Shown here: positions 1,803 to 64,000 of the stretch, one piece after another
Layout of the letters: every line of letters starts with the position of its first letter
How positions within the stretch are numbered: position 1 is the stretch's first letter
NCBI GenBank assembly: GCA_965368975.1
Contig: CBDUPA010000021.1
Coordinates: forward strand, 50,352 to 114,351
Reading direction: 5' to 3'
DNA from: an uncultured bacterium
GTDB taxonomy: Bacteria > Acidobacteriota > Thermoanaerobaculia > Multivoradales > JAHZIX01
DNA: 64,000 bases
Made by a program: the position numbers and the translations under genes
Notes under the pieces: model-generated
What the model was told of the DNA's origin: nothing
Database searches by the model: none
The model's input: only the letters and a program-made list of their open reading frames with translations

Positions 1803-1829
1803 CCCGGCCCCCGAGAGCCGGGAGCCGGG
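1803..1829 (-). terminator. GC-rich hairpin, probable terminator of the cytochrome-porin operon
   Basis: Minus strand CCCGGCTCCC-GGCTCTC-GGGGGCCGGG followed by TTCTGGTT, ~70 nt after the porin stop. Confidence 0.45.
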
Positions 1830-1900: not shown

Positions 1901-4039
1901 CTAGAAGCTGTAGGCCAGCCCCAAGCTATAGAAGCTGACTTCGCCAGACGTGTCGTAGAGGTACGGCGTGTCGTCCTGGAAGTCGAGATAGCGATACCCG
2001 CCGGTGACGGCCAGCTGCGCGGTGGCCTGATAGCGCAAGCGCAGCGCCAGCTCCAAGCGGGAGAGATCGAGATCGGAGTTGGTGTGGGTCAGGGTGAAGT
2101 CGTAACTCTGGTTGGGGTTGAGCAGAGTGCCGGGGACCTCGAAGTCGAAGGGCGCGAGGGCGGCTTCAGCCTCGGTCCACGCCAGATCCAATCCCAGTTC
2201 GAGTTCGTTCGTGGGCTGCCACTCGAGACCGGTGGCGATCACGCTGTCGTTGGTGTCGTAGTTGAGCAGAGTGCGTGCCGAGCCAGACTGGCCCGAAAGG
2301 ATCGAGCCTGCTCAGCCATCGAAGATGGGGATGAACGATGGATACTTCAGCTCGGTATCGTGCCAGGCATAGGAGCCGTACCACTGCCAGGTCTCCGCCG
2401 GCGCCCACCAGAGAGTCGCAGTGAAGCTCTGGTGCGTGCGCGACCAGTCGGTGAAGTCGAGGTCTTCCGAGCCGTCGTTGTCACCGTCCCACCAGGTGTA
2501 GGAGGCGCTGAAGTTGCTCTTGCCGGTGGCGTACGTGCCCCCCAGCTTGACCTCGTCCCAGCTCTCGGCGGCCGCCGTCGTGTCCGCGACGCGCGCGTCC
2601 TGGAACTCGTAGTATTGCGCCGCAGTCGGTGCGAAGGGGCTGGGAGCAGCACTCGAGACCAGGGTCGAGAAGGCACCGTCGACCGTCGCGAAGGGATGGT
2701 CGACCTGGCCGTGGCGATAGCCCGCGGACAGGCGCAGACCTTGGCGCGGCCTGGCCCACCAGCGCAGCCCCAGGACATTCTCGGTGGTGTCGGTCTCACC
2801 GAGCGCGACCTCGTAGTGATCCCGTCGTAGATCCTCGTACTCCCAGAGCAGCCGCACTCGCCCCGCCTTGCCGGGAAGCTTGGTGGTCAAGTCGAGCTTG
2901 GAGTCGAAGATCTCGCGGTCGAGGGCCGACTGTCGCAGGTAGTCTGGATCGAAGCCGTAGACGTCACGGAAGGTACGACCAGCATGCGGCCCCGCAATGC
3001 CAGGCGGCTCGGCGATGTCGACGAAGATGTCGTCGCTGTCGATCTGCGTGTAGCGGCCACGCCAGCGCAGTTTCCAGCGCTCGTGGAAGGTGTGCACCGC
3101 GTTCACCGCATAGCCATCGTAGTGCGCCGACAACCCCGTGAGTTCGTTCTCGGTCTGCGACCAGACGCCACTGGCATCCAGGGCCAGGCCGCCGGGACGC
3201 GCGAAGCTGAGGGTCAGCTTGGCGATGTCCTTGCTGGTGTCTGGGCGCTGGTGCACCGGCTGCGGACCCTGAGCCGAGTCCCACTGCAGGCGGTTGTCGA
3301 ACACCGGGACGCGCAACTCGGGTTGCAGGGCGTCGTCGAACAGAAGGTCGATATCACGCACACCTTCGCGCAGCTCGCGCCGGACATAGCTGGCGCGCAG
3401 CTGGGTGTGTTGCCAGGCATAGGAAACCTCGACACCGACGTCTTCCGTGCTCTCGTCGAGCGGCCGACTCTGACTGTAGACATGGCAGGAGTCGCAGTGC
3501 GAGATGGTGAGCGCCTGGTATTGCCCTTCGCGTTCCTGGCGACGGTAGAGCAAGGCCAGGGTGAGAGCATCCCAGTCGCGAGGTTGGAACTCGGTGCGAT
3601 GCCGCAGGTCACTGTAGGTGAGCTCGTAGTCGGCAGCCGGATCCAGGTCGGTGTGATGGACGTAGCGGCCGTGATTGGTAGCCGCTTCGAGATTGGACAG
3701 TGGATCGTGACCCAAACGATGGAAGAGCTTCAGGAACTCGGTGCTCGAGCGCAGCTGACGCCCCCCCAAGTCGAACGCCAAGCGGTGCATCTGGTCGTCG
3801 TCGTCGCGCCAGTCGAGGTCGAGATCGAGAAAGCCCGCCTCCAGTGCGCTGGTGAAGCGTAGTTGCAGATCGACACCGCCATCGGTTGTCTCGTATTCAC
3901 TGACCACATCGGGGGAGCCATCGACATCCGCATCCCAGACACCAACTTGCAGCTCACCTTCCTGGGTCTCCTCGGTGAAGCCCACTGCCGGCAGGACGAG
4001 CAGCATGCCCAGCAGCAAAGGGCAGAACAAGCGTTTCAT
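1901..4039 (-). CDS. MtrB/PioB-like outer-membrane beta-barrel with CXXCH; probable selenoprotein (UGA576 read-through), resembling the GSU2204-type family
   Basis: ORFs 2312..4039 and 1901..2242 share a frame. Only TGA 2312-2314 separates them, and the linker reads open (AGSILSGQSGSARTLLNYDTNDSV). Signal peptide, CDSCH motif, and the joined 712-aa product ends in the barrel signal YSLGLAYSF. Confidence 0.8.
2275..2311 (-). promoter_or_regulatory. Candidate bacterial SECIS element
   Basis: Directly 3' of the UGA: stem CGGGCC / GGCUCG with loop AGUCU (G then U in the apical loop) about 22 nt after the UGA. Alternative pairings are possible. Confidence 0.55.
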
Positions 4040-4054
4040 GATCTTCCTCCTCGC

Positions 4055-5008
4055 TTACCAGGTCAGGCCGCGACCCTGGCCGGGAACCGTCTGCGACGGC
4101 AGGTCCGAACCATGGACTCGGGAGTGGCACTGAGTGCAGCTGGTGGTGAAGGCGATGTTCATGCCGCGAGGGCCAAACGGGTTCTCACGCTCAAAACCGC
4201 CGATCTCCACTTCGTCACCTTCGCCGCCGCGATAGCCGGAGTGGAAGTGTGGCTCGTGGCACTGCAGGCACAGCGCCGGTTCGTTCGCCACCAGCAGGTT
4301 GTCCGCCACTGATCCATGCGGATTGTGGCAGCTCGAGCAGTCTTCTTGCACCGGTTCGTGCTCGAAGACGAAGGGGCCTTCTTTGTCCTGGTGGCAGTCG
4401 TAGCACAGGTCGTTACTGCGCAGCGCGGTCCGTAGCTGTCCCTCGCGTGCGTTGTGCACGTCATGGCAGCTGGCGCAGTCCATCTTGCCTTCACGCAATG
4501 GATGGTGCGACGGCAGCCGGAAGCTGGCGACCACGGCGCCATGGCAATCCTGGCAACTGTCGAGTGATGCCACTCTCGTCTCGGCGCGGTGGACCGAGTG
4601 GCAGTCGGTGCAACCCACATCTTCAAGGGCGTGCGTCGAAGCGTGCCACTGGCCCAGCCCTTTGACCTGGTGACACGAGAGGCAGGTCTTGTCGCCCCAG
4701 GTCGTATCACCAAAGCCGCCGATGCTCTCGGGCGTCATCTCATCAATGTGCACCGAGCCCGGGCCATGGCAACCCTCGCAGCCGGTCGCACGGCCTTGCA
4801 CTTCAAAGGGCTGGATGCGCGCATGAATCTGCGCCAAGCCGAGCTGCAGGTCTTCGTGACAGGTTAGGCAGGTTTCGTCGCCGACGTACTCGGCGGGTAT
4901 GCCATCGAGCGAGGCGCTTCCCGCCGGGGAGAGATCGGCAGGATGACGCGCCGCGACGGTCCCGAGTAGCACCAGCGACACTGAGCAGAAGAGCAGTGTG
5001 CCTCTCAC
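4055..5008 (-). CDS. Decaheme c-type cytochrome, MtrA/DmsE family
   Basis: Ten CXXCH motifs (CLTCH, CEGCH, CLSCH, CTDCH, CQDCH, CASCH, CYDCH, CSSCH, CLQCH, CTQCH), GPFVFEHEPV and VHGSD. GTG start at 5008 with GGAGGT RBS and a signal peptide. Confidence 0.93.
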   Translation of the reverse strand: MRGTLLFCSVSLVLLGTVAARHPADLSPAGSASLDGIPAEYVGDETCLTCHEDLQLGLAQIHARIQPFEVQGRATGCEGCHGPGSVHIDEMTPESIGGFGDTTWGDKTCLSCHQVKGLGQWHASTHALEDVGCTDCHSVHRAETRVASLDSCQDCHGAVVASFRLPSHHPLREGKMDCASCHDVHNAREGQLRTALRSNDLCYDCHQDKEGPFVFEHEPVQEDCSSCHNPHGSVADNLLVANEPALCLQCHEPHFHSGYRGGEGDEVEIGGFERENPFGPRGMNIAFTTSCTQCHSRVHGSDLPSQTVPGQGRGLTW

Positions 5009-5190
5009 GGCGGGACCTCCTTCCCTTGCTCCGCAAGTGCGAATCGCGCTCGGGAGCGAATTCATCGTCATCCCGAATTTAGCGCGACAGCGAACTACAG
5101 GCATCCACCGAGAGGAGAGTTAGTCCGCCGTCTGATCGGAGTGGTGGACTGCCCGAAAGGGTAGCAAGAGGCGCTGCGGACTGTACCTTG

Positions 5191-6545
5191 CTACGTCACC
5201 GCGGTCTGCTGCCGGAACTCTCCTCTCCGCCACTCCTCGTCGATCATGACCCGCCGCAGAGCTTCGACCGCATCCCACATGTCGACGTAGCGCAGGTAGA
5301 GCGGTGCCAAGCCGAAGCGCAGGACGTCTGGAGCGCGGAAGTCGCCGATCACGCCTCGGGCGATGAGCGCTTGCACGATGGCGTATCCCTCGGGGTGGCG
5401 CAGGCAGACCTGACTGCCGCGCTGCTGGGCACCTTCAGGGCACGCCAGCTCGAGAGCGAAGTCTGCGCACCGCTCGGCAACGAGCCGCAAGAAGAGATCG
5501 CCCAACCGCATCGACTTGCGGCGCACCGCGTGCAGGTCGACGCCGTCCCAGACATCGAGAGCGGCGTCGAGAGCGGCCAGGCTGAGGATGGGGGGCGTGC
5601 CGCAGACGAAGCGCTGAATGCCGTCGGCGGGACGGTAGTCGAGGTCGAAGGCGAAGGGAGCTTCGTGGCCGAGCCAGCCACTGAGCGGTGAATGGACCCA
5701 CGGCTGCAAGCGCTCGGCGACGTAGAGGAAGGCCGGAGCACCAGGCCCCCCGTTGAGATACTTGTAACCACAGCCGACGGCGAGATCGACGTTGCAGGCG
5801 TCCAGTTCGACGGGCAGTGCACCAGCGCTGTGGGCCAGGTCCCAGAGCATCAAGGCACCCGCATCGTGGACAGCCCGGGTGACGGCTTGCATGTCGTGCT
5901 GGGCCCCGGTCCTGAAGTCGACGTGGGTCAGAGCGACGACCGCGACGGCATCACCATGCTCGCGCAGGGCAGCGCTCAGACCTTCTGCGACAGGCTCGCG
6001 GCTGCACGGGGCGGCGTCGATCACCTGCACGCGGCATCGATCCTCCCCCAGAAGCCTTGCATGATGTAGAGGTCGGAAGGGAAATTGCCGCGTTCGGACA
6101 GGATGAGTGATAGGCCCCCTGGCTTGCCTGCGGCCCCCTTTGGCTTGCCAACAGCCCTCCCCGGCTTGCCAACAGCCCTCCCCGGCTTACCAACAGTAAA
6201 GTCGAGAGCAGCGGCGAGCAGTTTGAACAAATTGGCGGACGTAGAGTCCGCGACCATCACCTGGCCAGGTTTCGCCCCGACGAGCCGGGCGATCTTGTCG
6301 CCGGTACGGCGAGCCAGATCGATCCAGCCATGCTGATTCCAAGAGCGGATGAGATCGTGCCCCCACTCCTGCGTGACCACCTGCTGCAGGCGCTCGGGGA
6401 CCCCGAGCGGCAGGGCGCCGAGGGAGTTGCCGTCGAGGTAGAGAACACCTTCGGGCAAGGAAAACTCGAGGCGCAGGGATGCCAGGGGATCGTCGTGGTC
6501 GAGAGCGGCGCAAGCGTCGCGGCTAGCCAGGGCAGAAGCAGGCAT
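5191..6545 (-). pseudogene. kynU: Kynureninase split by a 1-nt frameshift near 6045-6056 (real lesion or sequencing error)
   Basis: N-half has YLDGNSLGALP, DSTSANLFKL and NFPSDLY. C-half has WDLAHSAGA, GCGYKYLNGGPG and GVIGDFRAPDVLRFG. Adding one base gives IMQG-LLGEDRCRVQVID. Confidence 0.85.
6116..6196. repeat. 21-bp tandem repeat (about 4 units) inside kynU
   Basis: GGCTTGCCAACAGCCCTCCCC units, encoding VGKPGRA-VGKPGRA-VGKPKGA-AGKPGG. Confidence 0.85.
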
Positions 6546-6672
6546 GGGTGATATGGTTACATACTACGAACCGTAGCAAACGGTTCCTCTGAAGCGAGTC
6601 TTGCATTGACGTCTGACGCTTTGATGTCGACTACGTCGAAGCACCCCACCAGCAGGAGGATCTCCCAGCACC

Positions 6673-7011
6673 GTGAGCAAGTATCTGTACGTCCAGCTGT
6701 GGCGAATGAACACCGAGTGGCTGGGCCTGTCGGAGCAAGAGCGACTGGAATTCGTCTACCAGATCGGCATCGTGATCAAGGATCTGATCAAAGAAGGCTC
6801 GGAGCTGGTGGGCTTCAGCCTCAACGATCACGACACACCGGAGCGCATCGAGTACCGCTACATGGCGGTGTGGAAGACGACGAAGGAGAACGTACAGCGC
6901 ATCGACAACGCCTTCAAGGAAGCCGGCTGGAACGAGTACTTCTCTCACGTCAACGCCCGCGGTGAAGTGGTGCAGCCGCAAGAGTTCTTGCGGCACATGA
7001 TCCACATCTAG
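6673..7011 (+). CDS. DUF6616-like small alpha/beta-barrel protein
   Basis: YLYVQLW..EWLGLSEQERLEF and AGWNEYFSHVNARG patterns. AGGAGG RBS upstream. Confidence 0.6.
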   Translation: MSKYLYVQLWRMNTEWLGLSEQERLEFVYQIGIVIKDLIKEGSELVGFSLNDHDTPERIEYRYMAVWKTTKENVQRIDNAFKEAGWNEYFSHVNARGEVVQPQEFLRHMIHI

Positions 7012-9109: not shown

Positions 9110-9370
9110 TCAGTCGAGAGGGGCGATCTTTCCCGGAGCTTCCAAATTCTCGGCGTGGTGCCAGGCGTCGAGAAGATCGCGTTGGTGCAGCGAGGCCCAC
9201 TCCGAGACCAGGCCCATCGCCCGCGGCGGCAACTTGCCGGCCAAGACCGCCAGCGAATGAATCTCGATCAGCACCTCGTGCTTGCCGTAGAACGCATGAA
9301 AGTGCGGCGGAGCATGGTCACCGAAGTACATGCGGATGACGATGCCGTAGAAACGGCACAGTTCAGGCAT
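9110..9370 (-). CDS. DUF4160 family protein (putative TA component)
   Basis: MPELCRFYGIVIRMYFGDHAPPHFHAFY and the C-terminal KIAPLD are characteristic. Confidence 0.88.
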   Translation of the reverse strand: MPELCRFYGIVIRMYFGDHAPPHFHAFYGKHEVLIEIHSLAVLAGKLPPRAMGLVSEWASLHQRDLLDAWHHAENLEAPGKIAPLD

Positions 9371-9647
9371 GGATGGCTGGCGGTAGACCACATTCGAACA
9401 GCACATCCGGCTGCATGCGAGTCAGCTGCAAGTAGAGGCTGTCCGCGCACAACTCGACATCGTCTGTCCAGGCGATAGAACCATGATCGCTGACATGAAC
9501 TTGTTCGAAGCAGGAGCGATCGTCCCAGATGCTGAAGACACCCTTCCCGGCGAAGGAACTGAGATCGACTTCTCCCACGATATCGTCCGCGTACCGCAAC
9601 CAAATACGGTAGCCGTCGCGAGCCTCGACTTGGATTGGTCTCACCAT
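9363..9647 (-). CDS. DUF2442 family protein (putative TA component)
   Basis: YRIWLRYADDIVGEVDLS...GVF...F.QV...SIAW.DDVELCADSLY. Overlaps the DUF4160 start. Confidence 0.85.
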   Translation of the reverse strand: MVRPIQVEARDGYRIWLRYADDIVGEVDLSSFAGKGVFSIWDDRSCFEQVHVSDHGSIAWTDDVELCADSLYLQLTRMQPDVLFECGLPPAIHA

Positions 9648-31604: not shown

Positions 31605-32027
31605 ATGATTCAAATCAATCGTAATCTCAGCGCGCGTCAGCTGCGCACCTTCGGCCTGCTGTGGCTGCTGTTCTTCGGCTTCTTCGCCTACCGCCTGTGG
31701 CACGCTGGCTGGCAGACCACGGGCTCGGCGCTCGCCGCCGCTGCCCTGCTGGTACCCTTGATCGGCTGGTGGTGGCTGCCGCTGCTACGGTGGGCCTACA
31801 TCGGCCTCAGCTACGCCGTCTTCCCGATCGGCTGGCTGGTCTCGCACTTGCTGCTGGCCATCGTTTACTATGGGGTCTTGACCCCGATCGGCCTCAGCCT
31901 GCGCCTGTTCGGCAAAGACCTGCTGCAGCGGCGCCTCGATCCCAAGACGCAGGGCAGCAGCGGCGCCAGTTACTGGATCGAACGTCCACCACCGCCACGG
32001 GCCGAGCGCTACTTCCGACAGTTCTGA
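31605..32027 (+). CDS. SxtJ family membrane protein
   Basis: LRTFG, YYGVLTPIGL..RLFGKD, SYW, RQF terminus. Follows the carbamoyltransferase. Confidence 0.85.
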   Translation: MIQINRNLSARQLRTFGLLWLLFFGFFAYRLWHAGWQTTGSALAAAALLVPLIGWWWLPLLRWAYIGLSYAVFPIGWLVSHLLLAIVYYGVLTPIGLSLRLFGKDLLQRRLDPKTQGSSGASYWIERPPPPRAERYFRQF

Positions 32028-32084
32028 CCGCGCCTTTCCCAGCGCACCCATCACACAACCGTCGCCGTTCCAGCAAGGAGCCGC

Positions 32085-32369
32085 ATGATGCCTGCACCCG
32101 AGAGCCAGGATTCGCCCGCCACCTCCCAGCAGCCCGCTTCTACGCAGACGGGTGCTCAGCAGACGGGTGCTCAGCGGACGGGCGTCGAGAGCGAGTTCGA
32201 GCGTGCTGCCACGGGCAAGCAAGCCGGCCTGTTGCAAGAGCTGTGGGGCTTCGTCTGGGAAAGCAAGAAGTGGTGGTTGACGCCGATCCTACTGGTGCTG
32301 CTCCTGCTCGCGGCGTTCGTCCTCTTCGGTGGCGGCTCCGCCGCGCCTTTCATCTACACCCTTTTCTGA
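32085..32369 (+). CDS. DUF5989 (SxtK-like) small membrane protein
   Basis: ELWGFVWESKKWWLTPI...APFIYTLF. Low-complexity N-terminus with QTGAQ repeats. Confidence 0.88.
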   Translation: MMPAPESQDSPATSQQPASTQTGAQQTGAQRTGVESEFERAATGKQAGLLQELWGFVWESKKWWLTPILLVLLLLAAFVLFGGGSAAPFIYTLF

Positions 32370-32384
32370 GTCTCCGGAGTCCGC

Positions 32385-34022
32385 ATGAGCCTTGAAATCA
32401 ATCAAATCCCGCACCGCGTGCTGCGCAAGTTGCACGCCAACCAGGCCGTCGTGCTGACTACCGGCCACCTGGGCGACAAGGTTCTGGTCTCCACCAGCCT
32501 CGACCCCGGCGACCTCTACGAGACGTCCGAGCTGAGCAGCTTCGCCGAGTGCCGGCGGCAGGAGAACGTGCACTCGATCACCATGACCATCCTCAAGGTC
32601 GACCGCGAGGTGATCCTGGAGTCGACCAGCCACCTGGAGAGCCGCTACCGCATCATCTCCGAGCTGGACACCCTCCTGCAGTACAACCAGGACGTCTACG
32701 TGGTCTACGTGATCACCCACTACAACCCAGCTCAGAAGCCCTTCGGCCCCCTGACCATCAACATCGGCGGCGACTGCCACCGCACCGGCCGGCACATCCG
32801 CGACCTGCAGTCCATCCTGACGCGCACGCGCGACCTGGCCGAGGCGATGCTCAAGAAGTCCGTGATGATCTTCCCCGACATCCCGGCACTGCACGGCGGC
32901 AAGAAGGGCGAGTGGATCATCCTCGACCGTCACGGTGACAAGATCGATGGCCTGTCCGAAGAAGCCATCATCGCGCTCGGCTCGGCGATCATCCCCAAGG
33001 GTATTGGCTTCCTCAACCGCTACAAAGAGATGCAAGCGCGCGACATGGGGATCTGCGAACGCTTCCCGCGGCAAAACTACATCATGCCCGACAGCGGCTC
33101 ACCGGACGTCCTCTCCGGCGTCTTCTGGCGCGGCGAGCGCAAAGACAAGTACATCAATATGTGCGACGCCTGGTACCAGCGCGGCACCAACATGGCACAG
33201 TTCACCTGCCTGCCCGCCAACCTCGGCGGCACCATCGACTCGTCGGCCCGGCCCACCGGCTACGGCGTCAGCACCACCACGGTCGAGCTGGCCAAGCGTT
33301 ATTTCGAGCCGCGTGGTCGCGACCTGCAGTCGTTGCAGTTTCTGCTCGAGGCCGCCGGCAACGTCGGGCAGAACACCATCGAGTCCCTGATCCAGCAGTA
33401 CGGCGTGCCGCCCGAGAACATCACCGTCTTCGACCGCGCCGACCCGGCGACCAAGGCGGCGATGGAAAAGTACCGCGTCAACGGCATCACCCTGCGCCAC
33501 GGCGACTTCTACGAAGTCCGCCTGCCCGAAGAGGTACGTCAAGGTAAGAGCTACGACGTGTGGGTGAACAACGGCGAGGGCGACAACACCACGCCCAGCT
33601 ACGTCGACAATCTGCTGGCGGCCGGCGTCAAGGTCTTCGCCGGTGGCGCCAACAACCTGCTACAGGTACGCACCGAGACCGAGTCCCGCCAGCGCATCTT
33701 CGACGCCGGCGGTTGGATCTGGCCCGATCCCGCGACCAGCGGTGGCGGCTGGACCCTGGCGGTGATCGACATCATGACCCGCTGCCAGAACCGCAAGACC
33801 AACACCCCGGAGATCCAGCAGCGCATCCTCGACATCATCACCAGCCGCAACCGCCGCCTGGTCGAGGACGTGCTCGACGGCAACTCCGAACTCAGCGGCA
33901 GCGACATCTGGAAGCGCGTCGACCGCCTGATCGAGGCACGCGTGCAGAAGACCCTGTCCCTGGATCTCTCGCCACGCGAGATCTTCGACGGCGCCGATAC
34001 AACCAAGTGGGCGTTGGTCTGA
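32385..34022 (+). CDS. Highly divergent Glu/Leu/Phe/Val(Trp) dehydrogenase-like protein
   Basis: Colinear motifs: LAEAMLKK, HGGKKG, PTGYGV, EAAGNVG, AGGANNLL, PDPATSGGG. Confidence 0.6.
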   Translation: MSLEINQIPHRVLRKLHANQAVVLTTGHLGDKVLVSTSLDPGDLYETSELSSFAECRRQENVHSITMTILKVDREVILESTSHLESRYRIISELDTLLQYNQDVYVVYVITHYNPAQKPFGPLTINIGGDCHRTGRHIRDLQSILTRTRDLAEAMLKKSVMIFPDIPALHGGKKGEWIILDRHGDKIDGLSEEAIIALGSAIIPKGIGFLNRYKEMQARDMGICERFPRQNYIMPDSGSPDVLSGVFWRGERKDKYINMCDAWYQRGTNMAQFTCLPANLGGTIDSSARPTGYGVSTTTVELAKRYFEPRGRDLQSLQFLLEAAGNVGQNTIESLIQQYGVPPENITVFDRADPATKAAMEKYRVNGITLRHGDFYEVRLPEEVRQGKSYDVWVNNGEGDNTTPSYVDNLLAAGVKVFAGGANNLLQVRTETESRQRIFDAGGWIWPDPATSGGGWTLAVIDIMTRCQNRKTNTPEIQQRILDIITSRNRRLVEDVLDGNSELSGSDIWKRVDRLIEARVQKTLSLDLSPREIFDGADTTKWALV

Positions 34023-38347: not shown

Positions 38348-40858
<2,511 letters not shown>

Positions 40859-40987
40859 GACGAAGTCAGTGTAGCAGGCGTCCATTCGAAGCTGAGCGAC
40901 GAAGAAGATAGCATCGGCACGATCGCACCTCGGACAGCCGAGCCAATCCCCTCACCCTCAGAACCCAGACACCAACGGAGGTCCCCC

Positions 40988-59316: not shown

Positions 59317-62300
59317 TTACGACGGGTTGGTGCAGTTCGTGTTGTTGTTGTTGGTTACAGCACCGCCCGGGAACGAGAAGTCCCCGGTGTTGTTGTGCGG
59401 CGCACCCTGCAGCTGGGCACCGCTGACCGCGCCCAGGCCAGCGCCCTCTACGGTGAACGTACCGCCGTTCTCGTCCAGTTCCCACTCGGTAGCGGTGTTG
59501 GTGGCAGTGTTCTCGCGTAGGTCAGCGCAGAAGGTGTTGGCGTCGGCCTGTAGATCGAGCTGAACGAACGAGGTGCCTGTGCTCGAGAAGGTGTTGTGCG
59601 TGATGGTCGCGTTGACGTTGGTGCCTGGATCGTCCGACTCGATTTCCATGATCGCGTCCGTAGTGTTGTTGTCACTCCGGAACGTGTTGCCATCGGCCAT
59701 GCTGCCACCGATCAGCAGGTTCATCGTGCCCGCCCGATTCTCGATGAACACACCGTCGCGAGTGCCACCCACGTTGTTGGCGGTAGTACCACCGATGGCG
59801 CCCGTGCCAAAGAGGTTGCGACGGATCGTGATGTCCAGCGTGGTGATCGGGGAGCGGTTCGAGATGTAGAGGGCTTCGCGGTCGCCCATGTCGTCGACCC
59901 TGTTGTCGTCGATGAACACGTCCATGCTGGCGATGGTGCCACCGCTGTGCTCGTTGATGATGTGGATACCGCGACGGTTGCCAGAGCTGGCTCCATCCGT
60001 CATCGACACATCATTGCCTGAGATATTGAGCGTCATCGTTGTTCCCGGCGTGATGGCACCGCCACCGTAGCCAGCGTTGAGGATGCCGGAGTTGAAGTTA
60101 CCGGCCTTGGCCAAGTCGTCGTAGGTGTTGTTGCGGATGTTGAAGTTACAAGTCAGCTGACCACCACAGCTGTGGTTGGTCTCACCGACACCATCGGCAT
60201 CCGAGTCCTGGACCGTGTTGCGATCGAAGTTGTGGTTCAGCGTACCCGAGGTTTGGGTACCGCTACCCTCGTAACCGTCGATCTGGAAAGCGCTGGGGTC
60301 GAGAGCGTCGAAGCGACTGTCCTCTACGTTGACCGTGGTCGTACCGATGTTGCCGCGGAACTGCGCCAATACCATCACAGCACCGGTATCCGACTCGGTG
60401 AAGCGACTGTTGTCGATGGTAAAGCTCGCCCCACTGGTGGCGAAGTTGTGCAGCCGCACGCCATGCGTACTCGCCACATCGACGTTGTTGAGCGTCACAT
60501 TGTCCAAGCGACTGGTACCCGACAGCTCGGTCAGGTCCATGCCATGTGAGCCCGGCGTCAGGACGATCATGTTCTGCAAGCGCAGGTCCATCGAGGTGTC
60601 GACATCAATGGCTATGCCGGTCGTGTTCTGAATCGTTCCTCCGGTGCCATTGCCACCCTGTGTCGCGGTCGAGCCGTCGCCAGTGACGATCAAGCCACCC
60701 GCAGTACCGGTGGTGTTCAGCACGATGCCGTTGGCCGCCCCGGAGGCGGCGATCGACTGGAACGTGGCGTCGTTGGCGCCGATGGTGGTGCTGGTGAAGT
60801 TGAGACCCACGGCGTTGGTTGCCGCGACGGTGTTGCCCGTGCCTGTCACCTCGACGGTGCGCGCCGAGTTGGCGTTGATGCAAGTGCCCGCGGAGCAGGT
60901 CAAGCCCAGTCCCGCCAGGCGCGTGATACTGGTCGCGGCCAGGCTCGTCAGGTCGACGCAATTGCTGTTGTTGCTACAGGTGACGCCGTCGAAGATGGTG
61001 TTCGAGACGATGCCGTCCAGATCCAACCCGGCAGCACCTGCTCCGGTGGTGTTGATGTTCACCGTTCCCGCTTGCGTCGCCGTGTCCAGAACACCACTGC
61101 CCGTGGCCACAATGCCGGGCACATTGCTGGTGAAGATGTCCAGGCTGTTGAAGCTGAGCAGCGAGTTGGCCACGTTGCCCGACATGTTGACGCCGCCGCC
61201 CGTGATGCGACTGGCGGCGCTGGTTCCCAGGTCCACGGGCGCAGTGAAACTCAGCGTGCTCGGAGCCGCCGAGCCGGAGAAGTTGATACCCGTGTTTCCG
61301 CCGGTGCCCTGCAGCGTCGCCGTACCCGTGAAGCTGATGGTACCGCCACCGCGCCCGGTAACGTTGACCAGGCGGTTGGCGGTCGAGCTGTTGAGGCCGT
61401 TGCCAGTCAAGGCCGCGGACACATTGGCGGTTCCCAGGTTGACATCGAAGGCGTTGACCGTTCCGGCGGTCTGGTTCAGGTCCAGGTCGCTGAAGGTGAT
61501 CGCGGCCGTGTTGTTGTCGATGTCGACCGTGGCGCTGCTGCTCAGGTCGGCGTTCGCGAAGCTCACCGTACTGGCGGCGCCGTTGATCCGGACACCGCTA
61601 CCGCTGGCCGTCACCTGACCATCGAAGCGGACGGAACTGCCAGCGAGTAGGTTGGCGATGTCGACCGCGAAGCCGCTGGCATCGTTGATCGTGCCGTTGT
61701 GATCGACCGTGGCAGCACTGCCATCGATACGGAAACCAGGCCCGGCGCCGGCATGGGTGATCGCGGTGCCGGCAGCGAAGTCGAAGGTACCACTGGAACC
61801 GTTTTCGATGTCGACTCCAGCATCGCCGCCGTTGAGGGTCGTGGTGCCGTTGAAGTCGTAGTCACCGTCGGCGTTATTGAATTGCAGACCAGTACCGGCA
61901 GTCGCATTGATGGTGCCGGTCTGGAAAACCACCGTGCCGGTATTGTGGCCGCCGGTTACGGACACCGCCGGTGCGTTGGTCGACTGTGTAAGGCTACCGC
62001 CGAAGGTCGACGAGACGGTACCGCCAATGATCGAGAAGCCCGGGCCGATGCTGGTGATGATGGCGCCCATGTTGGCAGTGAAGCTACCGCTGATCGAGTC
62101 GAGCAGAACACCGGACGTGGGACTGCCGCTCGACGAGATGTTGCCGAGTTGCACGTTGGCGGTCAGCGGATCGAGCGCCACCGCCGGACCATTGATGGCG
62201 TCCGCTGTGCCGCCCGTGGTGGCAAGCAGGAAACCGGCTGTAGGCGGCGGTCCGCCGGTCGATAGGCCGGTGCCGGAGGCGACCAACGCGGCGCCGTTGA

Positions 62301-64000
62301 AGGCAAAGATGTTGACGGTGCCAAAGCCCAGGTTACCGCTGACCGGGTTGGCCGCGGTTCCCAGCGTCACACCGCGCGCAACGCGGTCGCTCACGATGCC
62401 GACGCTCAGCGTGCCGCCGGTGACCAGGTCGAAGTCCGCATCCGAGGGATCACCGTCGAAGATCACGCCCAGCATGCGCACGCCCTCCCCCGCCGAGGTA
62501 CCAAGCACGACGTTGTTGGCAAAGCCGGTCACGAAGACCGAACCAGCGCCGCCAGTGTCCTCGACGTGGACCGCTGAGCCGGCGCCGTTGGCCGAGGTGA
62601 TGCCGGTGTTGTTGTTGAAGGCCACCCGCAGGTCACCGGCTCCGCTAGCACGGGCATCGAAGCCGTTGCCGGTGGTCGCCAGGCTGTTCACCGTGCCAAC
62701 GGTCACTGTTGCCAGGCCGGAGCCGGCATGGTTGACGTCGACCCCTTCGCTGCTGGCGCCAGTGACGCGAGAGTTCTCGAAGGTGACACCGACGTTGTTG
62801 GCACCAGCAGTGGTGACGTCGAGGGCATTGCCGCCGGTGGCATCCAGCTCGACGCCCCGAATTTCGATGCCGGTGACGTTGGCGGCTGTCGCATCGACCG
62901 TGATGGCATTGCCCGCGGTGTGCCCGATGCGCGCGTGACGGGTAGCGGTAGGCGCCAGCAGCACCGCCGGTGCCGCGTTGCCGTTGAGCGCCAGGTTCAC
63001 GTCACAGCCGTGGTGCTCACCATGCAAGCGCACATTGCTCGCCGCCAGCGTGATGCCAGCGTTCATGCCCGCATTGGTGCCAGTGCCCTCGAAGACACAG
63101 ATCAGGTCCCCCGCGCCGTGCGCGGCTTGGGCCGCGGCCAGGGTGTCGAAGGGATCGTCGGAACGGCCGAAGGCAGCACCGTCAACCGGGTTGAGCGCCT
63201 CGCCGGCTGGATCGTTGTGCACGTACCAGGCGCGCGCGTTGCGGATGTTGATCGTCGCGGTTGCCGTGTCCATGCCACCAGCACCGCTGGTGATCGTGTA
63301 CATGAAGCTGTCGGCCATGTTGAGCACGCCGCGCGGCGGCAGGTAGACGAAGCTGCCGTTGGCGTTGACGGTCACGAGACCACCGAGCGTGGTCGGCCCC
63401 GTGAACGGCGCCGTGATGTCGGCGCCGACAGCCGACACCTGGATGCCCGACATCTCGGGATCCGTGTCGTTGGCCAGCAGGCTGGTGGTGTTGGTGAGGC
63501 GCGCGAGGCTGGTCGGCGTAGCTCCGGCCACGACCAGTTCGGTGTTGCCGATGGTCTCGTAAGTAGTGTCGTCGACCGCGTCCGGCGGATCGGTGACGCA
63601 GGTCACCGTCACGCTCACCGTCGCAGTGTCCCCACCCGTGATCGTGTAGGTGAAGGTATCCGCGCTACCCGGAGGAATCGGCGTGTTGCAGTAGTCCGCA
63701 TCCGGCGCGTACGTCAGGTCAGCGCCGCCATTCGTGATCACCACCGTGCCGTTGGCGGGCTGCGTCACACTCGTGACCAGGAACGCGTCACCTTCCAGAT
63801 CGCTGTCATTGTTCAGCACGTCGATCGTCGTCGCCGGATCATCCTCGGTCACCGTCGCCGTGTCGTCGATGGCATCAGCCGGATCGTCGGCGCAGGTCAC
63901 CGTCACGCTCACCGTCGCAGTGTCCCCACCCGTGATCGTGTAGGTGAAGGTATCCGCGCTACCCGGAGGAATCGGCGTGTTGCAGTAGTCCGCATCCGGC
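59317..64000 (-). CDS. Very large surface/secreted protein with Ig/cadherin-like repeats and a beta-helix-like region (5' end outside the window)
   Basis: Frame open to the window edge (>1550 aa). DVLNND.D..GD...TYAP..DY...DTFTYT repeats, then long G/T/N/S-rich beta-solenoid-like sequence. No autotransporter barrel at the C-terminus. Confidence 0.85.
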   Translation of the reverse strand, partial: PDADYCNTPIPPGSADTFTYTITGGDTATVSVTVTCADDPADAIDDTATVTEDDPATTIDVLNNDSDLEGDAFLVTSVTQPANGTVVITNGGADLTYAPDADYCNTPIPPGSADTFTYTITGGDTATVSVTVTCVTDPPDAVDDTTYETIGNTELVVAGATPTSLARLTNTTSLLANDTDPEMSGIQVSAVGADITAPFTGPTTLGGLVTVNANGSFVYLPPRGVLNMADSFMYTITSGAGGMDTATATINIRNARAWYVHNDPAGEALNPVDGAAFGRSDDPFDTLAAAQAAHGAGDLICVFEGTGTNAGMNAGITLAASNVRLHGEHHGCDVNLALNGNAAPAVLLAPTATRHARIGHTAGNAITVDATAANVTGIEIRGVELDATGGNALDVTTAGANNVGVTFENSRVTGASSEGVDVNHAGSGLATVTVGTVNSLATTGNGFDARASGAGDLRVAFNNNTGITSANGAGSAVHVEDTGGAGSVFVTGFANNVVLGTSAGEGVRMLGVIFDGDPSDADFDLVTGGTLSVGIVSDRVARGVTLGTAANPVSGNLGFGTVNIFAFNGAALVASGTGLSTGGPPPTAGFLLATTGGTADAINGPAVALDPLTANVQLGNISSSGSPTSGVLLDSISGSFTANMGAIITSIGPGFSIIGGTVSSTFGGSLTQSTNAPAVSVTGGHNTGTVVFQTGTINATAGTGLQFNNADGDYDFNGTTTLNGGDAGVDIENGSSGTFDFAAGTAITHAGAGPGFRIDGSAATVDHNGTINDASGFAVDIANLLAGSSVRFDGQVTASGSGVRINGAASTVSFANADLSSSATVDIDNNTAAITFSDLDLNQTAGTVNAFDVNLGTANVSAALTGNGLNSSTANRLVNVTGRGGGTISFTGTATLQGTGGNTGINFSGSAAPSTLSFTAPVDLGTSAASRITGGGVNMSGNVANSLLSFNSLDIFTSNVPGIVATGSGVLDTATQAGTVNINTTGAGAAGLDLDGIVSNTIFDGVTCSNNSNCVDLTSLAATSITRLAGLGLTCSAGTCINANSARTVEVTGTGNTVAATNAVGLNFTSTTIGANDATFQSIAASGAANGIVLNTTGTAGGLIVTGDGSTATQGGNGTGGTIQNTTGIAIDVDTSMDLRLQNMIVLTPGSHGMDLTELSGTSRLDNVTLNNVDVASTHGVRLHNFATSGASFTIDNSRFTESDTGAVMVLAQFRGNIGTTTVNVEDSRFDALDPSAFQIDGYEGSGTQTSGTLNHNFDRNTVQDSDADGVGETNHSCGGQLTCNFNIRNNTYDDLAKAGNFNSGILNAGYGGGAITPGTTMTLNISGNDVSMTDGASSGNRRGIHIINEHSGGTIASMDVFIDDNRVDDMGDREALYISNRSPITTLDITIRRNLFGTGAIGGTTANNVGGTRDGVFIENRAGTMNLLIGGSMADGNTFRSDNNTTDAIMEIESDDPGTNVNATITHNTFSSTGTSFVQLDLQADANTFCADLRENTATNTATEWELDENGGTFTVEGAGLGAVSGAQLQGAPHNNTGDFSFPGGAVTNNNNTNCTNPS
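63597..64000. repeat. Identical 110-bp segments with a 294-bp (98 aa) period
   Basis: 63597-63706 equals 63891-64000. Confidence 0.9.

Follow-up and report, generated by a model that had tools for sequence, protein, structure and literature searches.

Does an in-frame UGA in the porin gene of a bacterial porin–cytochrome pair end the protein, or is it decoded as selenocysteine (Sec), and what would such a residue do in an outer-membrane electron conduit? The question is raised by a 64,000-nt stretch of an Acidobacteriota metagenome-assembled genome (MAG; contig CBDUPA010000021.1), hereafter the window, whose positions are used for all coordinates. Here a porin gene on the (−) strand (1901..4039) occupies a single frame from ATG 4039 to TAG 1903-1901, with TGA 2314-2312 as its sole interruption. 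The conventional open reading frames (ORFs) on this strand are one of 575 amino acids (4039..2312, stop TGA) and one of 113 amino acids (GTG 2242..1901), in a common frame; translated across the TGA, the gene yields a protein of 712 residues (575, then Sec as residue 576, then 136) that reads ...PIFDG-U-AGSILSGQSGSARTLLNYDTNDSVIATGLEW... and has the C terminus LAYSF. An earlier note on this DNA, made from the sequence alone, had described the fusion of the two ORFs by an in-frame TGA, the LAYSF end and a CDSCH motif, and all of these sequence statements were verified. With a probability of roughly 0.8, we propose that the locus encodes a trans-outer-membrane conduit of the MtrAB/PioAB type, in which a decaheme cytochrome is paired with a 712-residue barrel that is completed by Sec at the UGA and displays this Sec at the surface.

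The codon at the centre of this proposal (2312..2314, (−) strand) was followed through two sets of relatives. A word-indexed search of approximately 5.8 billion proteins gave 103 matches, including the window's own protein, and a scan of one genome per species (GTDB) gave 41 related loci, down to 25% identity, mostly from Acidobacteriota MAGs (Thermoanaerobaculia, Holophagae, Vicinamibacteria and Bryobacterales); the window porin is at most 55–61% identical to any relative found. The aligned codon after ..DG is TGA in 40 of the 41 loci, and the contig of the remaining one (L005) ends before reaching it. Where the 3′ end is complete (37 loci), the frame always runs on for 136–139 codons, and the C-terminal residue of the tail is F, except for one L. 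Among the other database homologues, 101 of 102 end at ...[FYM][DN]G, the last being a 401-residue fragment. In-frame conservation extends over the 23 codons that separate the UGA from GTG 2242 (AG.I..GQ.G). Directly 5′ of the UGA (2315-2317 in the window), Gly is encoded by GGT or GGG in 37 of 39 sequences, although GGC makes up 58% of Gly codons in these genes overall, which suggests a context preference at the recoding site. Conservation across the loci thus confirms, at the level of sequence, that the in-frame UGA is real and conserved and not a product of chance.

Downstream of the codon, a search with the 136-residue tail against 1.84 billion cluster representatives returned 92 matches, 85 of which are fragments of 47–160 residues with scattered starts (query residue 6 to 91); these starts are arbitrary gene-caller choices. 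No full-length protein with a sense codon at the Sec site was present among the 92 tail matches from the 1.84 billion representatives. Two of the seven long matches (P0179 and P0171) were checked and are unrelated repeat proteins. In the sampling used here, the family is apparently obligately UGA, without a Cys form. In 18 of the 37 complete-tail loci the true stop of the porin gene is also TGA, so that one mRNA reads TGA in two ways, and because TGA is the stop of 30 other window ORFs (31 of 52 counting the 575-residue ORF), the decoding is local and a genome-wide code reassignment is excluded. From these patterns we infer the insertion of selenium at residue 576.

A hairpin resembling a selenocysteine insertion sequence (SECIS) follows the codon (2277..2297, (−) strand) and was delineated by pairing and covariation in a gap-free alignment of 69 nt around the UGA from 39 sequences. 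In the window its stem joins 2296-2290 with 2284-2278 by seven pairs around the loop AGUCU (2289-2285); counted from the UGA, the hairpin spans nucleotides 16–36 and its loop G is nucleotide 24. In the alignment, columns 24-31 pair with columns 37-44 (window 2297-2290 with 2284-2277) and enclose a loop of five bases, mostly A-G-N-N-U. This helix is paired in 89.4% of cells and carries 53 double-sided changes; none of 500 shuffles matched the observed pairing, double changes or covariation score, and slid controls reached at most 62.2% paired. Column pairs 25-43, 26-42 and 27-41 covary among GC, AU, UA and GU, and the third base of a Gly/Ser codon covaries with the second base of a Ser/Phe/Tyr codon five codons on, a codon-to-codon tracking that protein-level constraint would not produce. 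The stem codon of Gly583 is GGC in all 39 sequences versus a background of 58% in these genes. In bacterial SECIS elements of the fdhF type, the hairpin lies directly 3′ of the UGA in the coding sequence and presents a conserved G in a small apical loop. The window hairpin resembles them in its location inside the coding sequence, its small loop and its conserved G (and U), some 24 nt beyond the UGA; it differs in that no curated model matches it, and recruitment of SelB would follow by analogy. A permissive Rfam scan of 2100-2500 gave a Mycobacterium small RNA as its sole match (E value 0.89), which we attribute to chance.

The protein family is identifiable from profiles on either side of the codon. 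The NCBIfam model NF041027, named "GSU2204 family CXXCH-containing (seleno)protein", matches residues 11-575 with 540.1 bits against a cut-off of 350, over model positions 3-580 of 580, and the model ends exactly before the UGA. The Pfam model MtrB_PioB (PF11854) matches residues 315-690, across the UGA, with 30 bits against a gathering threshold of 23. Upstream of the porin lies the gene of a decaheme c-type cytochrome (4055..5008, (−) strand), in which we counted ten CXXCH motifs; its likely start is GTG 5008, after GGAAGGAGG, the longest possible ORF begins at 5104, and the stop is TAA 4057-4055. The product matches NF041028 (GSU2203 family; 345.6 bits, cut-off 325) and TIGR03508 (DmsE family decaheme; 222.8 bits, cut-off 192.2), and is predicted to be an MtrA-like insert of the barrel. 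Because the decaheme ORF ends just 15 nt 5′ of the porin ATG, the two genes read as one operon ((−) strand, 5008..1901). A ribosome-binding site, GAGGAGG, can be read directly from the sequence 6 nt 5′ of the porin ATG (4046..4052, (−) strand).

The pairing of the two genes is conserved. A complete ORF with ten CXXCH motifs stands directly upstream of the porin in 33 of 39 loci examined; in the other six, the decaheme is cut by a contig end (three) or upstream sequence is absent (three). With tblastn the decaheme was found in 40 of the 41 loci, whereas six other neighbours from the window gave no match in any locus; the decaheme is the only conserved neighbour. Only two window ORFs carry CXXCH in a cytochrome context, and the window holds no gene for an MtrC-like cell-surface decaheme. 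Some relatives have further multiheme genes: an 8-heme ORF of approximately 470–545 residues lies further upstream in eight loci (L007, L009, L013, L014, L024, L027, L029 and L030), and downstream of the pair L016 has a 23-heme ORF of 1060 residues (3761-6943 of that locus) and L017 an 8-heme ORF of 846 residues (4372-6912 of that locus). No such extra 8-heme or 23-heme ORF occurs in the window. The GSU2204/GSU2203 (OmcK) pair has CXXCH, the in-frame TGA and the gene pairing in common with the window locus, whereas the relatives of the window porin are mostly Acidobacteriota MAGs, not Geobacter, and, unlike 22 of 36 members, the window porin has no Cys457/Cys569 pair.

Next, the read-through porin was modelled with AlphaFold2 from an alignment of 36 read-through sequences. 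The prediction is a barrel of approximately 28 strands (mean predicted local distance difference test score 82.6, predicted template modelling score 0.75), in which only the signal peptide, the CXXC (182-184) and the Sec (576-580) have confidence values under 50. The top Foldseek match is MtrB (6r2q_B; E value 2.2e-22, template modelling scores 0.68/0.74), and every other match scored at most 0.40. The truncated 575-residue product would, in this model, stop five strands short of a complete barrel and have no terminal aromatic residue, which supports the view that only the fused read-through protein is a complete MtrB-like barrel.

The likeness to MtrB (6R2Q) thus comprises the best structural match and a PF11854 score above gathering, together with a decaheme partner gene of the MtrA/DmsE type directly upstream and a model whose surface loops are long, whose turns are tight and whose strands 1 and 2 are joined by a loop with a helix. 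A published account of MtrB in the MtrCAB complex describes turns that are tight on the periplasmic side, long and folded loops on the surface, by which the outer aperture is narrowed, and a capping helix in the strand 1–2 loop (PMC7198977). The differences are a sequence identity of 11%, 26 strands in MtrB versus the approximately 28 predicted for the window porin, and the CXXCH and Sec, which the window porin carries and MtrB does not. As no MtrC-like gene is present in the window, its parts list is nearer to PioAB and MtoAB, which are two-part porin–cytochrome systems, than to MtrCAB. By analogy with MtrA in MtrB, the decaheme is predicted to be threaded inside the porin barrel.

The model also allows the two unusual groups of the porin to be placed. 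Its long connections all follow odd strands (42-54, 110-137, 226-267, 336-374, 448-492, 521-532, 629-656 and 690-698), the connections after even strands have 2–7 residues, and the loop between strands 1 and 2 holds a short helix. Because this pattern matches the surface loops and periplasmic turns of MtrB, the long odd connections are assigned to the outer face. Sec576 falls within a 10-residue connection (574-583) at the tip of two unusually long strands (23–24 residues), a position that makes the cell surface its likely location. The CDSCH motif (residues 182-186; 3482..3496, (−) strand) is modelled as a 4-residue turn joining two short 8-residue strands, and this turn would lie on the periplasmic side. 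A single CXXCH near residue 180 is present in all 103 database matches, and C182, C185 and H186 are invariant in the 36 read-through sequences; as a c-type heme attachment motif, it presumably binds a covalent heme. Since the model places the CXXCH and the Sec on opposite membrane faces, a joint heme–Sec redox site within the porin is not favoured.

Conservation within the family peaks in predicted surface loops (for example, the motif PVFDNRLQ.D); such conserved surface loops are unusual for porins and suggest a structured cap. Residues 244-250 (P-V-F-D-N-R, ~3310-3290) resemble residues 570-576 (P-I-F-D-G-U, ~2332-2312), these being the two most conserved motifs, and the likeness may reflect an internal repeat of a loop element. 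Among the 36 sequences, Cys457 (in the surface loop 448-492) and Cys569 are both present in 22 and both absent in 14, including the window porin, with no mixed case. This pattern points to a clade-specific disulfide beside the Sec loop, Cys569 being seven residues before Sec, and a disulfide there supports an extracellular location of the Sec loop at an oxidising outer face. In the 14 sequences without this pair, the CXXCH cysteines and the Sec are the sole Cys/Sec residues, bar Cys6 in the predicted signal peptide of the window porin. The mature window porin has only Cys182, Cys185 and Sec576, so that Sec576 is without a resolving cysteine, and for that reason Sec would act alone and not in a thiol/selenol redox pair.

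These observations can be joined into a mechanism. The first gene would supply a periplasmic decaheme of the GSU2203/OmcK family that, by analogy, threads into the barrel; the second would yield a complete MtrB-like barrel only when UGA 2314-2312 is decoded as selenocysteine, for which the conserved hairpin would recruit SelB and Sec-tRNA. Failure to recode would cost the barrel five strands at its end and, with the C-terminal Phe, its beta-barrel assembly signal. In the complete protein, the CXXCH would carry an eleventh heme near the periplasmic rim, and the Sec would lie within the set of conserved extracellular loops predicted to cover the outlet of the heme wire. The role most likely to fall to the Sec is that of a lone ligand or nucleophile at the surface mouth, where electrons would reach an external substrate. 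More tentatively, and with the odds against it, the barrel may itself be a cell-surface selenoenzyme, in which the lone obligate Sec at the exit of an 11-heme wire ligates or attacks a metal, mineral or chalcogen, or in which the Sec loop ligates the porin's own heme; if true, either variant would make this a type of catalytic outer-membrane porin without a described precedent.

Several results weigh against a Sec-containing conduit of this design. The machinery for Sec did not come into view: an NCBIfam scan of 50 window ORFs found none of selA, selB and selD, no tRNA was found anywhere in the 64-kb window, and no tRNA-Sec occurs in any of the 41 loci. The hairpin is energetically ordinary, with a 53-nt fold of −20.4 kcal/mol (z = −1.92; 7 of 200 shuffles as stable), z = −1.16 for a 76-nt fold, and an RNAalifold consensus energy of just −0.83 kcal/mol over five pairs; an Rfam scan of the whole window at gathering thresholds gave no matches, to SECIS models or otherwise. 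In addition, the helix overlaps conserved codons, and the 39 aligned sequences are related, so that the shuffle controls overstate significance. On the side of structure, a sequence-profile search of the PDB with the porin returned no matches, AlphaFold2 is least confident at precisely the two sites of interest, the CXXC (182-184) and the Sec (576-580), strand parity alone is the basis for sidedness, and the motif is the sole basis for a heme on the porin.

Part of this evidence would suit a UGA that is read through without selenium, by near-cognate insertion of Trp or Cys or by another programmed read-through that the hairpin stimulates with no binding of SelB: neither sel genes and tRNAs in the window nor tRNA-Sec in the 41 loci were found, and a SECIS match in Rfam is absent. 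We regard such decoding as improbable, because the hairpin has the layout of a bacterial SECIS of the fdhF type, NCBIfam and reviews list the family among selenoproteins, and the sense-codon variants expected if any residue sufficed were found neither in the loci nor among the tail matches. Termination at the UGA, giving a 575-residue barrel with a separate tail of approximately 113 residues as a split barrel, or with a tail that is never made, is how gene callers annotate the locus, and GTG 2242 could open the 113-residue ORF. It is nonetheless very improbable: the codons between the UGA and that GTG are conserved in frame, the called tail ORFs share no conserved start, beginning anywhere from query residue 6 to 91, and the shortened barrel would be five strands and a terminal aromatic residue short. 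That the UGA is a nonsense mutation, a sequencing error or the mark of a pseudogene gains some colour from the neighbouring kynureninase gene, which looks frameshifted, so that this genome or its assembly does have breaks; the identical TGA in all 40 informative loci, with the downstream frame intact, refutes the idea almost completely.

A separate doubt concerns the heme. Instead of carrying a heme, the CXXCH could hold a metal, or function as a CXXC with a structural or redox role, leaving the Sec as the only special group of the barrel. The motif is all that speaks for a heme, the NCBIfam name says merely "CXXCH-containing", Shewanella MtrB has an N-terminal CXXC, and we know of no solved precedent for a covalent heme in a turn of a barrel wall. 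Against this, all 36 read-through sequences keep the His that follows the second Cys and all 103 matches have the motif, which would be unexpected for a plain CXXC, and Cyc2 is a precedent for a heme-bearing porin; a heme-free motif therefore seems unlikely to us, if less so than the accounts of the UGA just given. A conduit that carries both a heme motif and a Sec on its porin thus remains our preferred account.

Much of this had been anticipated by the earlier note. It had named a GSU2204-type (seleno)protein family, which is NF041027 (540 bits versus 350), and had expected standard annotation to split the gene, as public gene calls indeed do at the UGA. Its distance of "~22 nt" from the UGA to a hairpin with a G-U loop was about right, the loop G being nucleotide 24, and covariation across the 39 sequences now backs its reading of that hairpin as SECIS-like. 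Where it had proposed that homologues be aligned at the codon, with Trp, Arg or Gly as the sign of a mutation or read error, every one of the 40 informative loci has TGA. Its view that only the fused protein is a full barrel agrees with AlphaFold2 and the MtrB-like Foldseek match, the heme motif that it saw in the barrel proved invariant, and the decaheme partner turned out to be a GSU2203/DmsE-family neighbour with conserved synteny. Its wider suggestion, an MtrAB-like conduit with redox groups on the porin, is supported as regards the heme motif and the conserved UGA, and is not favoured by the model if heme and Sec are taken to form a joint site.

Two further systems help to place the locus. 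Cyc2 of iron oxidisers consists of an N-terminal cytochrome domain and a barrel of approximately 16 strands, with neither a separate multiheme insert nor Sec. Both Cyc2 and the window porin are outer-membrane beta-barrels with one CXXCH heme motif in their own chain; they differ in that the window porin has its CXXCH among the barrel strands, at residue 182, and has approximately 28 strands and a decaheme partner. No sequence or fold match to Cyc2 turned up in the searches made here, in which no Cyc2 model or structure was compared. ExtKL of Geobacter (GSU2937-2936) is described as a predicted Sec-containing multiheme cytochrome whose Sec function is unknown (PMC5877670; PMC13188914). It resembles the window locus as a predicted selenoprotein in an outer-membrane electron-transfer cluster that annotation splits at the UGA; it differs in having its Sec in the cytochrome, not the porin, and belongs to a separate family (NF040886).

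As for the GSU2204 family itself, review tables list it as a prokaryotic selenoprotein with one Sec, and their entries give no motif and no function (PMC9312934; PMC13188914). The same tables credit the family to Zhang and Gladyshev 2008, in the main text of which "outer membrane" and "cytochrome" have no occurrences. In a published study, GSU2203 (OmcK) and GSU2204 transcripts were up approximately 2.4–2.7-fold with hematite. A full-text literature search for GSU2204 gave no functional work, just the 2026 review (PMC13188914) and the hematite study; beyond those transcript changes with iron oxides, the data found consist of a table of single-nucleotide polymorphisms, and literature searches combining selenocysteine with porin–cytochrome, and selenoprotein with MtrB, gave no functional study. 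What is already known, then, is that the family is catalogued as a selenoprotein, functionally unstudied, and hidden from naive gene callers only; what is new is the apparent lack of a Cys form, the covariation of the SECIS-like hairpin, the argument for a lone Sec, and the predicted placement of the CXXCH and the Sec on opposite faces.

Porin–cytochrome conduits pass electrons to and from minerals in many bacteria, and the solved barrel is seen as an inert, insulating sheath. A widespread family in which the sheath always has a heme motif and a Sec that, in our sampling, is never replaced by Cys would run counter to that picture. The family is named for a Geobacter gene and resides mostly in uncultured Acidobacteriota, and the Geobacter namesake offers a tractable organism for work on the function of the Sec. 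Standard gene calls truncate these porins, so that inventories of extracellular electron transfer genes overlook them or get their length wrong, and draw no link to selenium supply.

Elsewhere in the window, a terminator-like GC hairpin (1803..1822, (−) strand), a weak consensus match approximately 80 nt past TAG 1901, comes after the read-through tail and not after the UGA; one such hairpin was found versus 1.6 expected in shuffles. Thirteen other in-frame TGA sites have open flanks with high GC content at third codon positions. Two of them, TGA 32025 and TGA 32367, were rejected as recoding sites: they lie in a run of three consecutive same-frame ORFs split by TGA (31605-34022, (+) strand), downstream of a NodU-like carbamoyltransferase gene, of which the first two appear to encode complete small membrane proteins with typical C termini; they read as ordinary genes whose shared frame is a coincidence. 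TGA 442-440 was likewise rejected, being the end of a DUF1015 ORF (440-1678, (−) strand) that is followed 15 nt on by a rhodanese-like ORF (17-424); neither of these two genes is beside the porin in any of the 41 loci. A product of 845 residues with a DUF255/thioredoxin-like domain and a weak DsbD_N-like end (38348-40885, (−) strand) was rejected as a selenoprotein, its match to the TsoB model being weak and at domain level only.

The kynureninase gene mentioned above (TIGR01814; 5191-6545, (−) strand) consists of two overlapping ORFs (6545..6021 and 6030..5191) with a frame change near 6030, and is either a pseudogene or an assembly error; its N-terminal piece contains a 21-nt tandem repeat (6142-6196, 2.6 copies) that encodes GKPGRAV-like units. 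A small ORF at 9110-9406 ((−) strand) has a sub-threshold likeness to the type II toxin DhiT (NF048015; 85.7 bits, cut-off 100). Last, an ORF of more than 1560 residues that runs off the window end (59317-63999, (−) strand) matches a tandem-95 repeat domain, and its product is probably a surface or adhesin-like protein.

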